NCBI GenBank assembly: GCA_903869365.1
Contig: CAIPYV010000009.1
Location: 1,042 to 65,041, forward strand
Reading direction: 5' to 3'
DNA length: 64,000 bases
DNA from: an uncultured Chlorobiaceae bacterium
GTDB taxonomy: Bacteria; Bacteroidota; Chlorobiia; Chlorobiales; Chlorobiaceae
Below the pieces are notes generated by a model that ran no database searches, was not told the DNA's origin, and worked only from the letters and a program-made list of their open reading frames with translations. This document shows, piece after piece, positions 9,284 through 17,485 of the stretch; within the stretch, counting starts at the first letter, position 1; the number at the start of each line of letters is the position of its first letter. A program made the position numbers and the translations under genes.

Positions 9284-10139
9284 CCGGCACTCTCCCTGTT
9301 TTGTGCATCACTCCATGTTTGATTCTCATCATTTCCGGAAAACTGCCGGCAAGGCGCAGTGGAAAAAGGATAAGATACCATGCCATTCCGTTCCATGCCC
9401 GGTACTTTCTCAGAAGACGAAGCACTCCGAAACTTTTTTTAACCAGCTTCGATAACGGATTTCCATGAAGCGATGCCGATACTTTATGCCACACCCGTGA
9501 AGAGGGCACATATTCAATACTCATTCCTAAAGAGGCAATCCGCAAAGAGAGATCAACATCTTCGGCATACATTGCAAACGTTTCGTCAAAACCGCCGAGT
9601 GCCTGAAAATCTTTGCATCGCATGGCAAGGCAGCATCCTGTTGCATACCCTGTAGTAACGGGACGACTGAACTGCGGGGAATCTTTTTTTCTGAGCCCGA
9701 CATGGCTGATGAGACCGGTCGAAAGCCTGACAATTCCGCCGCCATACCAGAGTGTATCGGGACTGTCAGAATAGAATATTTTCGGCACAGCAATGCCTGC
9801 CAAGGAGTTCCTCTGAAGGGTTTCAACAAGCGGTACCCAAAAACCGGCTTCTACAATAGTATCGTTGTTCAAAAAAACAACATACTCTCCTTGCAGCTCC
9901 ATAACCCTTCTGAACCCTGCATTGTTGCCTGCCGCATAACCACGATTAGCAGGTAAAACAAGCAACTCTGCATCCGCAAAAGCATCTCGGATCAGCTCTG
10001 CAGAGCCATCGGTCGATCCGTTATCAACAACCAGCACCCTGCATAAAGGTGGCCTTTCCCCTGCAAGAGAGTTGAGACAGGCGAGAGTATCTTCTGCACC
10101 GTTCCAATTCAAAACCACGATCCATGTCACAGGATACAT
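9255..10139 (-). CDS. Glycosyltransferase family 2
   Basis: IVVLNWNG, VVDNGSTDGS, FLNNDT and YAEDVDLSLR motifs. Confidence 0.92.
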   Translation of the reverse strand: MYPVTWIVVLNWNGAEDTLACLNSLAGERPPLCRVLVVDNGSTDGSAELIRDAFADAELLVLPANRGYAAGNNAGFRRVMELQGEYVVFLNNDTIVEAGFWVPLVETLQRNSLAGIAVPKIFYSDSPDTLWYGGGIVRLSTGLISHVGLRKKDSPQFSRPVTTGYATGCCLAMRCKDFQALGGFDETFAMYAEDVDLSLRIASLGMSIEYVPSSRVWHKVSASLHGNPLSKLVKKSFGVLRLLRKYRAWNGMAWYLILFPLRLAGSFPEMMRIKHGVMHKTGRVPDAEHIQNRH

Positions 10140-13455: not shown

Positions 13456-14883
13456 TCACACCTCAAGTCTCTTGAGAAGAGCCTCATTGACCATCTTAGG
13501 ATTAGCCTTGCCTTTCATGCGACTCATGCACTGTCCCACAAAAAAGCCCAACAACTGGGTCTTTCCGTTGCGATACGCAGCAAGTTGACCAGGATTGGCC
13601 GCAAGAATTTCATCGACAACGCTCTCAATCGCTCGACTATCTGAAACCTGAGCAAGTCCTTCTCTTTCAACAATATCCAACGCGGAGTCTCCATTCTCCT
13701 GCATCAGTTCGAACACCTGTTTGGCAATGGTATTACTAATCATCCCATCACCGATGAGGCGCACCAACCCCCCAAGTCGTATAGGCTCAATCGAGAACTC
13801 TGCAATATCAAGATACTTTTCTTTAAGCGTGCGCATCACCTCACCCATCACCCAGTTCGAGGAAGCTTTTGTATCTCCCGAAACAATGACGGTCTCCTCA
13901 AAATAATCGGCAATCTCCCGCTCAACGGTAAGAACCGCAGCATCATAGGCTGGAATGGCATACTCCGCTACAAAACGGCTTGCACGAACTTCAGGAAACT
14001 CAGGAAGTTCACTCAACATACGATCAAGCATCTCCTGGTCAACAAGTACAGGAATCAGGTCAGGATCAGGGAAATATCGATAATCGTGTGCAAACTCCTT
14101 ACCCCTCATCGAACGGGTCTCTCCCTTGTCAGCATCCCAAAGCCGGGTCTCCTGAACAATGACTCCGCCGCTTTCAAGAATTTCCTGATGGCGCCAGGCC
14201 TCATATTCAATTGCTTTTTCAACATTCTTGAACGAGTTCATGTTCTTGATTTCGGTACGGGTGCCATATTCCGTCGCCCCGACAGGACGAAGAGAAACGT
14301 TGGCATCACAGCGCAAGCTTCCCTCCTCCATGTTTCCATCCGAAATACCAAGATATTTAACAATCTGCCGAACTTTCTGAAGGTATGCCGAAGCCTCCCT
14401 GGGAGTACGCATGTCAGGATAACTGACGATTTCAAGTAACGGCACACCGCTTCTGTTGAGATCGATATAGGTATCCTCACCGATATCATGAATCGACTTA
14501 CCGGCATCCTCCTCAATATGAATTCTGATCAGTCTGATAATCTTTTCACCTTCGCCTGCATCAATGTGAAGCACTCCTTCACTACAGATAGGCTCTTCAA
14601 ACTGCGAAATCTGATATCCTTTCGGCAGATCAGGATAAAAATAGTTTTTCCGGGCAAGAACCGAACTGGATGCAATAGTACAGCCCATTGCAAGCCCAAG
14701 CTTGACCGCATCTTCCACAACACGTCGGTTAAGAACAGGAAGAGCTCCTGGAAGAGCAAGACATACCGGACAAACATTACTGTTGGCAGGTTTTCCAAAC
14801 AGCGCAGAACAACCACAGAATGCCTTGCTCGCTGTATTAAGCTGACAATGGACCTCAAGGCCCACTACTAATTCATACTTCAT
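13456..14883 (-). CDS. gatB: Asp-tRNA(Asn)/Glu-tRNA(Gln) amidotransferase subunit B
   Basis: [26 protein letters not shown] and [10 protein letters not shown] motifs. Confidence 0.98.
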
Positions 14884-14955
14884 TGCAAAAATTAACGTTT
14901 TTGAAAAACACCTGCAGATTTACACTGATGCCTCTCCTGCTTATAAAAAAAATTC

Positions 14956-15492
14956 TCAGTATGATCGATAGGAAAACTTCTGCCCACCTACCGTTGCTTC
15001 AGCCATAACCCCTGCTTTGGGAAGCACAAAAACCGCTACACCATGTGAAAAATCAATAGTGGTGGCTGCCCCCGTATTAGCCAGGATTCCCTCTACCTGA
15101 GCATTAAGCTCATAATTCCCTTGTTTGAAATTATCAAGCTCATCCTTGTCCTTAAAAAATATAATTTCTGAAAAAGACTGGCCACCAAGTTGAGGACCAA
15201 CATTGATCTGCGTGATCGTTGAAAGCCCTACAAGATTATTACGTTCATAGACATAACCATTACCATGTCCTCCACCGAGGATCATGAATCCACCTTTGAA
15301 AACATCAGGAAAAACAACATAACCATAGGCTTTTTCAAAAAAGCGATCAAGCGCCGGTGCGTTCTTCCTGAAATATTCCACGGCCACCCTCGCATGATCC
15401 TGTTCAGCGGGATCCCACCCTGCATGAGCAGTAGAGAAAACCATTCCCGCAAGCATGAATGCAAGGATACCAATTTTCATCATTTTCATCAT
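14956..15492 (-). CDS. Exported Ysc84/SYLF lipid-binding domain protein
   Basis: Signal peptide; AYGYVVFP...KGGF, GPQLGGQSFSEIIFF and GVMAEATVGGQKFSY motifs. Confidence 0.8.
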   Translation of the reverse strand: MMKMMKIGILAFMLAGMVFSTAHAGWDPAEQDHARVAVEYFRKNAPALDRFFEKAYGYVVFPDVFKGGFMILGGGHGNGYVYERNNLVGLSTITQINVGPQLGGQSFSEIIFFKDKDELDNFKQGNYELNAQVEGILANTGAATTIDFSHGVAVFVLPKAGVMAEATVGGQKFSYRSY

Positions 15493-15502
15493 TGACGCGT
15501 AG

Positions 15503-15586
15503 TTACTTGTTTAATAAAATCCCGGTATAGAAACCATTACAATGATATGCAACGAGTAATGTACAGTTTTCACTGCAATAAATCAT
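15503..15586 (-). CDS. Putative 27-aa small protein MIYCSENCTLLVAYHCNGFYTGILLNK
   Basis: AAGGAGGTG Shine-Dalgarno (15590-15598) just upstream of ATG 15586; TAA at 15503-15505; no homology recognised. Confidence 0.3.
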   Translation of the reverse strand: MIYCSENCTLLVAYHCNGFYTGILLNK

Positions 15587-15622
15587 AGACACCTCCTTCT
15601 GGTCGAGATGACAACAGAATAG

Positions 15623-16945
15623 TTATCCTCCGGCTTCAAGTTCGCGTTTGAGAGCTTCGCGTTCGATTTCGAGACGGCGTATCTCACGGTTGATCCTGTC
15701 GAGTTCTTCGGGACTGCTGTCTATCTCCAGTCTGAGACGTGAAGAGGCTTCGTCAATCAGATCGATGGCCTTGTCGGGCAGAAAACGGTCAGCAATATAG
15801 CGGTTCGACAGTTCGGCAGCTGCAACAATAGCTGCGTCCTTGATGCGCACACCATGATGTATCTCGTATTTTTCCTTGAGGCCGCGCAGAATTGAGACGG
15901 TGTCATCCACGCTTGGCTGATCGACCACGACGGTCTGAAAACGGCGCTCAAGAGCTGCATCTTTTTCAATGTGCTTGCGATACTCGTCAAGCGTTGTCGC
16001 ACCGATACAGCGAAGCTCGCCGCGGGCAAGTGCTGGCTTGAGGATATTGGCAGCATCCATTGACCCTTCGGCTGAACCTGCTCCAACAAGCAGATGAATT
16101 TCATCAATAAAGAGAATAATTTCGCCATCCGACGCCTGAACCTCTCGTACAACCGCCTTCAGGCGTTCCTCAAACTCCCCGCGAAATTTTGCGCCCGCAA
16201 CAAGCTGAGCGATGTCAAGAGCTGCAATCTGCTTACTCTTCAGGTTTTCTGGCACATCACCAGCTACAATGCGTTGTGCGATTCCCTCGACAAGAGCGGT
16301 CTTACCGACCCCCGGCTCACCAATCAACACAGGGTTATTCTTGGTGCGTCTGCTGAGAATCTGCAACACCCTGCGAATTTCCTCATCACGTCCGATCACT
16401 GGATCGAGTTTACCCTTGCGGGCCTGGTCATTAAGGTTTCGCGAATATTTTTTCAGCGAATTATAGGTCTCTTCTGCGCTCTGACTGGTCACACGCTGCG
16501 TCCCTCGTATGGTGGCAAGCACCTTGAGAATAGCTTCGCGATTAATGCCTGCATCTTTCAGCATACGAGAAACATTAAGCCCTGCTTCACTCATGGCGAT
16601 AAGAAGGTGCTCTGAGCTGATATAGTCGTCTTTCAGTTTTTCAGCTTCTTTCAAGGCTACGTCAAAAACCTTGCCAAGATTTTGTGACAGATACTGTCCC
16701 GTTGCCGACGCACCAGTGACCCTCGGAATTCTCTCTATTTCACGATCAAGCGCCGCAAGCAGTGTTTCTGCTGGAGCTTCGAGCTTCTGTGCTATCTGCA
16801 CGGCAATACTGCTTTTATCGGCAAGCATCGCCGAAAGTAAATGTTCCGGCTCTATCTGCTGATGCTGCCGGCTGCCGGCAAGCGTTGATGCTGCCTGCAA
16901 TGCCTCCTGGGCTTTTACCGTAAATTTGTTCGGATCAAACTGCAT
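15623..16945 (-). CDS. clpB: ClpB, N-terminal half only (N-domain plus first AAA+ module, stops early in the middle coiled coil)
   Basis: [39 protein letters not shown] and DAALERRF motifs; ends at LKRELEAGG* after 440 aa, with no second NBD. Confidence 0.9.
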
Positions 16946-17185
16946 GATTCTAATTGTTTTGGTTTTCAGTTCTTAACATCGAGGTACATTCCGCACAGAA
17001 ACATACCTCAAGCCATAGAAGCTACTTACTGTATAACAATGTAAATGCAAAGAAAGTTAACACATTCAACCAGACTGCGCACCATACCGGAAAGAAAAAA
17101 AGGTTGCGACATGCTTGACTGCCGTAACCTTTATATAATACTGTTAAAATCGGTTTTCCCTATCCTCGGTCTTACCCTTCCATTC

Positions 17186-17485
17186 TCAAGAATGAGAGGA
17201 ATTGTCCTCTGGCGGTACCGGCCAATTCTTTATGACAGAACTGACAACGTGGCGAAGAATCTGCGCACTGGTAGAAAGAAGTTCAGCACTTTTCTCTTGA
17301 ATGTGTCGCTGCGTATCAAGTTGATCTTTGAAAAGCTCAACACTTGCGGGATCATAATTCCCCTGACTGACGTAGGCATCAATAACTTCCTCAGCTTCAT
17401 TAAAAGGCATGTTGAAAACCCTGAAACCAAGCTTTGCTCTCTCAAGAGAGTCAAGAACTTTCAGACCAGTGTTTTGCTGCTCCAT
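17186..17485 (-). CDS. Hypothetical protein, 99 aa, predicted helical
   Basis: ATG-started ORF filling the gap between batB and clpB; protein-like composition. Confidence 0.65.
   Translation of the reverse strand: MEQQNTGLKVLDSLERAKLGFRVFNMPFNEAEEVIDAYVSQGNYDPASVELFKDQLDTQRHIQEKSAELLSTSAQILRHVVSSVIKNWPVPPEDNSSHS

Follow-up and report, generated by a model that had tools for sequence, protein, structure and literature searches.

The window analysed here is a 64,000-nt stretch of contig CAIPYV010000009.1 from the uncultured Chlorobiaceae assembly GCA_903869365.1. On its minus strand, at 15623..16945, lies an open reading frame (ORF) of 440 amino acids (aa) that corresponds to the N-terminal half of the disaggregase ClpB (hereafter the N-half; Table 1), and this report is concerned with that gene and with the separate gene for the remainder of the protein (the C-half). 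ClpB/Hsp104 is a model disaggregation machine, and is switched on by Hsp70 via its middle domain. A reading of the window made from its letters alone (the sequence-only reading) had described an intact N-domain and first nucleotide-binding domain (NBD1) that run into a TAA stop early in the middle domain, followed by AT-rich intergenic DNA and an unrelated gene, with no ClpB continuation. All of its checkable details on the ORF proved right against Pfam, TIGR03346 (the NCBIfam model of ClpB) and the individual motifs. The description of the downstream DNA held as well, as the stop is followed by a short spacer and a Ysc84-like gene, and tblastn found no further ClpB there.

Residues 8-437 of the N-half match positions 1-429 of the 853-position TIGR03346 model, with a score of 669.2 bits. 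When the window was searched by tblastn with full-length E. coli ClpB, residues 4-432 of the query aligned to the ORF, and an alignment with full-length ClpBs revealed that the N-half shares their invariant columns. The protein has the layout expected of ClpB, namely Clp_N and then an NBD1 with Walker A and B motifs, a pore-loop aromatic residue and Arg fingers. Besides Walker A, the intact NBD1 motifs are Walker B (FIDEIH, residues 279-284), the pore loop (AGAKFRG, residues 250-256) and the Arg-finger segment (DAALERRF, residues 329-336). No second nucleotide-binding domain (NBD2) was found in any frame of the window, either by the tblastn search with full-length E. coli ClpB or by a six-frame motif scan.

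Sequencing or assembly error was ruled out as the cause of the short ORF, as the exact 440-aa protein has been called on contigs in 260 blocks of a public assembly collection, and DNA contigs from two independent lake metagenomes reproduce the region with 0 differences inside the ORF, stop included. The TAA stop was preserved in every DNA and RNA contig that we compared.

The partner gene for the C-terminal half

Families of C-halves were retrieved with the C-terminal half of the full-length Ignavibacterium album ClpB (locus L006). This query returned stand-alone proteins of 440-446 aa with AAA_2 and ClpB_D2-small domains, which start exactly where the N-halves end (MAK...(A/P)T..RLEEIE...); they belong to Ignavibacteria-type lineages, and none was from Chlorobia. 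The corresponding query from Rhodothermus returned C-halves of 436-442 aa named as Chloroherpetonaceae, Candidatus Thermochlorobacter and '[Chlorobium] sp. 445'. An alignment of C-halves contained a Tyr-to-Phe change specific to Chlorobia in the otherwise invariant RRxPYSV motif (RRxP(Y/F)SV), and we scanned the metagenome collection with a degenerate DNA pattern for it. The pattern matched one Chlorobiaceae contig (Ga0209083_1001003, locus L221), which carries a stand-alone gene for a protein of 440 aa. The ORF of about 430 aa, starting in the middle domain and carrying NBD2, that had been predicted from the window alone was thus located.

This protein matches TIGR03346 positions 431-852 with 616.8 bits. 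It begins with helix 2 of the middle domain and continues through motif 2, with its DnaK-contacting tyrosine (the Y503 equivalent, in IRYGK), the WTGIP segment, NBD2 and the C-terminal small domain; its further motifs are GPTGVGKT, LLDEIEKAH, GYVGY, MTSN, RPEFLNR and GARPL. In single-chain ClpB (1QVR), the segment ..DIVSKWTGIPL.. follows the middle domain and makes up the last part of the NBD1 small subdomain. The exact protein occurs on contigs in 110 blocks, and falls in a 90% cluster of 141 members that their sources name 'AAA family ATPase [Chlorobiaceae bacterium]' or '[Chlorobium sp.]'.

Several other searches were less informative. A scan of genome contigs with the N-half had no Chlorobia among the matches listed (best identity 66%) and gave full-length outgroups together with two further split lineages (L003, L005). 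Representatives clustered at 50% identity gave only distant or fragmentary matches, viral contigs nothing relevant, and lake-metagenome contigs placed on a heterologous clpB (L043) at 80% likeness an unreadable mixture of many organisms.

The gpsA-plsY gene pair lies 0.2-3 kb from the C-half in two settings (L291 12953-14676; L086 8081-9771). The pair is downstream and convergent in Chlorobiaceae, but upstream and divergent in an unrelated split lineage ('group 2'), and it does not adjoin clpB in I. album or Rhodothermus, where that gene is full-length. Its proximity to the C-half may go back to the ancestral clpB locus.

The two halves tile a single-chain ClpB

On the T. thermophilus ClpB structure (1QVR), the N-half covers residues 5-425 and the C-half residues 426-841; on that of E. 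coli (4D2Q), they cover 5-434 and 437-856; and on TIGR03346, positions 1-429 and 431-852. By alignment, the halves tile ClpB exactly, with no loss and no overlap. Identity to E. coli ClpB is ~55% over each half. Neither half is a single chain of ~850-870 aa above the TIGR03346 equivalog cut-off of 1232 bits, as the family definition has it, and this is where the system departs from that definition: each half scores below the cut-off, whereas their sum (669 + 617 = 1286) exceeds it. A complete middle domain, the long coiled coil with motifs 1 and 2 that is set into the NBD1 small subdomain, exists only in the pair, with helix 1 in the N-half and helix 2 onward, including the Y503 equivalent, in the C-half. 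NBD2 and the D2-small domain, which are absent from the N-half ORF and from the window, are present in the partner.

ClpA and ClpC lack a full middle domain, and a [LIV]-G-[FL] ClpP-docking loop sets ClpA, ClpC and ClpX apart from ClpB. We found no ClpP-docking tripeptide ([LIVM]G[FL]) in either half. ClpA models score far below the ClpB model for both, and the best matches are to ClpB, not to ClpA or ClpC.

A fixed breakpoint throughout the Chlorobia

A length-restricted homologue search found half-length proteins of 437-443 aa at 83-98% identity to the N-half in Chlorobium, Pelodictyon, Chlorobaculum and Prosthecochloris, and others at 73-80% identity in Chloroherpetonaceae, Thermochlorobacter and unnamed Chlorobiales. 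The half-length form, with the same end residue, therefore occurs in every named Chlorobiaceae genus that was found and in deeper Chlorobia. When aligned with full-length ClpBs, the split N-halves all end in ...LEIEREAL(K/R)RE, followed by L and 1-6 variable residues. In E. coli, motif 1 of the middle domain extends from E410 to Y455, with K431/E432 at its end (Carroni et al. 2014, PMC4023160). The conserved part of the N-half stops at E435, which aligns with E. coli E432. The cut therefore falls just after the E432 equivalent, in the turn that links helices 1 and 2 at the distal tip of motif 1.

Both halves are found together in all four split lineages that were checked. A Thermochlorobacter metagenome-assembled genome (MAG) has its N-half (MFN3428094.1) and C-half (MFN3428062.1) on one contig of 98,173 bp, an Ignavibacteria MAG (GCA_017303675.1; L090) has an N-half of 438 aa and a C-half of 443 aa on the same strand 7.6 kb apart, and Chloroherpetonaceae carry both. 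In Chlorobiaceae, the halves are on different contigs and unlinked. From these comparisons, we conclude that the ClpB of the class Chlorobia is encoded by two separate and unlinked genes, both strongly conserved, and that the position of the cut between them is fixed.

We then compared maximum-likelihood trees of the N-halves and of the C-halves, each with the matching parts of ~65-77 full-length ClpBs. The two trees agree in having a well-supported Chlorobia clade (Chlorobiaceae plus Chloroherpetonaceae/Thermochlorobacter) with the same internal order, and this congruence argues that the two halves were inherited together. Split proteins of the Ignavibacteria, Kapabacteria and Kryptonia type form a separate clade, inside which the full-length I. 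album gene is nested, and Rhodothermota and Bacteroidota have full-length ClpBs. An approximately unbiased test rejected the grouping of all split C-halves into one clade (difference in log likelihood 48.3, p = 0.0015). On these trees, the split state needs at least two changes on well-supported branches; these may be either recurrent fissions at this turn or a single ancient fission with later re-fusion or replacement.

Among proteins of the Candidatus Kryptonium type (P0485, P0482, P0486), one call of 477 aa continues across the position where the others are cut (...LEIEREAVKRELTSNYATDIDRKATEKKLEDIE...) and carries an additional insert there, and relatives start just past the breakpoint. The Kryptonia may thus hold adjacent or unsplit intermediates of fission. 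Separately, many ClpB-like proteins of 728-729 aa (P0399-P0426) are encoded on long contigs (up to 5 Mb). Judging by length and by the Pfam domains listed for them, they have NBD1 and NBD2 but seem to be without the N-domain; they may form a ClpB family that natively lacks it, or their starts may have been mis-called.

Both halves belong to one population and are under selection

In two DNA metagenomes (X1 and X5), 99-100% of the words sampled from the window are present. In both, the C-half locus (L221:5700-8502) is covered by contigs with 0 differences. Depth at the C-half locus was 283-309 in X5 and 62-83 in X1, compared with 293 and 77-87, respectively, for the N-half in the window. As the depths of the two genes are equal in two samples that differ about four-fold in absolute depth, there is strong evidence that both reside in one population genome, although identity and depth, on which this rests, are not proof of a single chromosome. 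Two metatranscriptome assemblies (X16, X17) also cover both halves at similar depth; the N-half is at 8.7-17.5 and the C-half mostly at 5-15.

Variants among the related strains in these assemblies were synonymous in 5 of 5 cases in the N-half and in 26 of 27 in the C-half. Compared with its counterpart in Pelodictyon luteolum, the N-half has a nonsynonymous divergence (dN) of 0.057, lower than that of its neighbours gatB (0.116) and obg (0.166), with saturated synonymous divergence (dS). Given the low dN of the N-half and the synonymous variants, both halves are under purifying selection, the opposite of relaxed selection.

Surroundings of the N-half gene

The coordinates of the features described here are collected in Table 1. 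The spacer 3' of the N-half contains no ClpB-like coding sequence in any frame and no terminator-like hairpin. A contig from an RNA run (14870-16348) spans the N-half, the spacer and the Ysc84-like gene, so that the latter is possibly co-transcribed with the N-half. Upstream, a terminator-like hairpin with a T-run closes the preceding gene, and the N-half therefore has an upstream control region of its own. That preceding gene, immediately next to the N-half, is a 99-aa ORF without a Pfam match (17186-17485, minus strand). P. luteolum has its counterpart at the same place (L087 9526-9828), and the two are clearly alignable by eye.

A 21-nt block, TTGC(A/G)TTTACATTGTTATACA, occurs upstream of the N-half in both species (window 17030-17060, minus strand; L087 ~9930-9965), and is a candidate promoter or operator. 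The region upstream of the C-half bears merely a loose resemblance to it (TTGCAC..GTTGTTAT). In the complete genome of P. luteolum DSM 273 (CP000096.1), the N-half is located at 168,098-169,426, and the gene order is that of the window: 100-aa ORF, N-half, Ysc84-like gene, gatB, xseB and obg.

Table 1. Features of the N-half locus in the window, and the partner C-half gene
Feature	Position	Strand	Basis or description
clpB N-half gene	15623..16945	minus	ATG start, TAA stop at 15625-15623, 440 aa; N-domain, NBD1 and middle-domain helix 1
Clp N-terminal domain, ~residues 8-146	16508..16924	minus	Pfam PF02861 Clp_N in two stretches; aligns to the E. coli ClpB N-domain
NBD1 (AAA+ module 1 and lid), ~residues 160-409	15719..16468	minus	Pfam AAA and AAA_lid_9, motifs, invariant columns with full-length ClpBs
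Walker A of NBD1	16298-16321	minus	GEPGVGKT, residues 209-216
Middle-domain motif 1, helix 1, residues 413-435	15641..15709	minus	Alignment and numbering; last conserved E435 = E. coli E432
Fission point	15623..15640	minus	Lineage-variable 5-residue tail LEAGG and TAA (15625-15623)
Spacer 3' of the N-half	15493..15622	minus	130 nt, 37% GC
Ysc84-like putative lipoprotein gene, 178 aa	14956..15492	minus	Weak match to Pfam PF04366; directly downstream of the N-half
Promoter-like motif TTAACT..TTGCATTTACATTGTTATACA	17030..17060	minus	84 nt before the N-half ATG; near-identical block upstream of the P. luteolum N-half
Terminator-like hairpin and T-run ending the upstream 99-aa gene	17107..17124	minus	Consensus match only
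Partner C-half gene, 440 aa, stand-alone	L221:6700-8022		AAA_2 and ClpB_D2-small

A probable two-chain ClpB and the alternatives to it

Taken together, we think it likely that ClpB acts here as a disaggregase made by two genes, and that the ORF at 15623..16945 encodes its N-terminal subunit. The sequence-only reading had proposed that NBD1 and the middle domain/NBD2 are separate polypeptides and had called for checks of breakpoint conservation and of selection across the Chlorobi. Its proposal is now supported by a complementary half in the same population; the lineages of Chlorobia that we compared share one end point, and relaxed selection, which would have spoken against it, is contradicted by the low dN and the synonymous variants in both genes. 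In the arrangement that we envisage, one N-half and one C-half would associate 1:1, with helix 1 of motif 1 from the former and helix 2 from the latter forming an antiparallel two-chain coiled coil, by analogy with the known ClpB structure (1QVR; Carroni et al. 2014). The C-half would complete the NBD1 small subdomain, which, with this coiled coil and the NBD1-NBD2 interface, would hold the chains together. The heterodimers would hexamerise into a hexamer of heterodimers (12 chains), and this two-chain hexamer would thread aggregated proteins with DnaK like ordinary ClpB. Such an assembly is plausible given the title of Beinker et al. (2005), cited in PMC4239642, according to which ClpB can act as a chaperone without a covalent link between its two NBDs.

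Several points weigh against this interpretation. The association of the two chains and their disaggregase activity are inferred, and the metatranscriptome assemblies X16 and X17 can contain carried-over DNA. The upstream regions of the unlinked halves share no motif of at least 8 nt; on comparing them, we looked for CIRCE or another common upstream motif and found none. There may be an additional full-length clpB in the same genome, the search for NBD2 having covered the 64-kb window, and a full-length ClpB of Bacteroidetes-like type, presumably acquired by lateral gene transfer, has been reported from Chlorobium phaeobacteroides (PMC1887533). Finally, motif 1 is needed for the repression of ClpB, which becomes hyperactive and toxic when the motif is deleted (PMC4023160). 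As the cut lies inside this repressing motif, the two-chain form might be regulated differently from canonical ClpB.

Instead of forming an obligate complex, the halves could be functionally independent single-ring AAA+ proteins, one an N-domain/NBD1 ring that might bind or unfold substrates and the other an NBD2 ring. ClpX and HslU are precedents for single-ring Hsp100 relatives, each half retains a complete AAA+ module, and the unlinked genes with no shared upstream motif found would fit separate roles. We nonetheless regard this as improbable, since no domain has been gained or lost since the cut and the tiling is exact to the residue. Each half also keeps a highly conserved strand of motif 1, which would be an orphan helix if partnerless, and the C-half retains WTGIP, a part of the NBD1 small subdomain in single-chain ClpB (1QVR). 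Moreover, the halves co-occur in the four lineages checked, with congruent trees.

The ORF ends at half the usual length, and a foreign full-length clpB has been reported in one Chlorobi species (PMC1887533), so that the ORF might be taken for a decaying remnant of clpB, created by a nonsense mutation or rearrangement, whose function either has been lost or resides in a second, full-length clpB. We rejected this on conservation (the N-halves of other Chlorobiaceae genera are 83-98% identical to it in amino-acid sequence and share its end point), on a dN of 0.057 with saturated dS, below that of essential neighbours, and on the strain variants, all five of which are synonymous. All motifs are intact, the N-half is present in RNA-run assemblies, and an equally conserved complementary half exists; a pseudogene is thus very improbable. 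Even less credible is that the halves are rejoined after translation by split-intein trans-splicing, or that the stop is bypassed by recoding. Split inteins are reported to rejoin split genes in some bacteria (PMC2677866), but only 5 residues in the N-half and ~7 in the C-half lie beyond ClpB sequence, which leaves no room for intein halves, and no N- or C-terminal intein fragments flank the break. None of the frames of the downstream spacer has ClpB-like coding, and as the partner gene is on a different contig, neither read-through nor a frameshift can join the halves. The tiny tails and the unlinked position therefore exclude split intein, read-through and frameshift alike.

Relation to known systems

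The split pair has the same domains, in the same order, and the same ATPase, pore-loop and Arg-finger motifs as canonical ClpB (E. coli 4D2Q/4CIU; T. thermophilus 1QVR). Unlike canonical ClpB, it is encoded by two unlinked genes, its chain is interrupted at the tip of motif 1, and each product reaches about half of the equivalog cut-off. The natural cut falls in the same structural element as the changes in ClpB-deltaM1 (deletion of E410-Y455) and in motif-1 point mutants such as E432A (Carroni et al. 2014, PMC4023160). However, whereas the motif-1 deletion and point variants are hyperactive or repressed (PMC4023160), the Chlorobia pair keeps both strands and only the turn is opened. A laboratory counterpart is the engineered two-fragment T. 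thermophilus ClpB (Beinker 2005), whose NBD1 and NBD2 pieces, judging by the title of that work, need no covalent link; that protein is a construct, and the split pair is natural. The construct (Beinker, Schlee, Auvula and Reinstein 2005, J Biol Chem 280:37965) was reportedly cut after the middle domain (NBD1-M plus NBD2) and not inside motif 1.

Split ClpBs of the Ignavibacteria, Kapabacteria-like, HR21-like and Kryptonia lineages (P0211-P0240, P0228/P0229, P0489-P0495, P0486; L090) have the same cut, with halves of 438-443 aa and 440-446 aa in one genome. These halves fall in different clades from those of the Chlorobia in both trees, and can lie close together (7.6 kb, L090), in contrast to the separate contigs of Chlorobiaceae. 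In the literature that we searched, we found no published description of a naturally split ClpB. Swiss-Prot presumably has two half-length entries of ~440 aa each for C. tepidum, CLPB1_CHLTE and CLPB2_CHLTE ('Probable chaperone protein ClpB 1/2'), which would be the present arrangement recognised in annotation. The literature searched gave no paper naming them, and we know of no functional study of C. tepidum ClpB 1 or ClpB 2.

An indel described in ClpB by Gupta and Lorenzini (2007; PMC1887533) lies at exactly the fission region. The same paper gives C. phaeobacteroides as the only Chlorobi species containing ClpB, a statement that may be explained by the halves of other species not spanning the indel region. 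One of the N-halves (P0083) is also named by its source as coming from C. phaeobacteroides. With the reported full-length copy, this species may therefore have ClpB in both forms, split and full-length.

Significance

A bolder proposal, which we consider unlikely but worth stating, is that the tip of motif 1 was opened independently several times (in Chlorobia, Ignavibacteria, Kapabacteria and Kryptonia), and that the split is used rather than tolerated. If so, the coiled coil, besides its regulatory role, would serve as a zipper that opens and closes between chains. As the genes are unlinked and have different upstream regions, the supply of one half could set the amount of disaggregase and its repressed or active state, and free rings of the N-half or C-half could have activities of their own.

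A class-wide two-chain ClpB would be a natural experiment on whether NBD1 and NBD2 can be joined by nothing more than the coiled coil, on how the head-to-tail repression by motifs 1 and 2 works when motif 1 is inter-molecular, and on the tolerance of AAA+ double rings to fission. It is directly testable, as the two proteins are small and easily expressed and Chlorobaculum tepidum is genetically tractable. Annotators should not treat a half-length clpB call in Chlorobia or related lineages as a pseudogene or a fault of assembly, and presence/absence surveys that require a full-length ClpB wrongly score the split lineages as being without ClpB. Such scoring may account for the statement in PMC1887533 on C. 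phaeobacteroides. The same point applies to any later survey of these groups.

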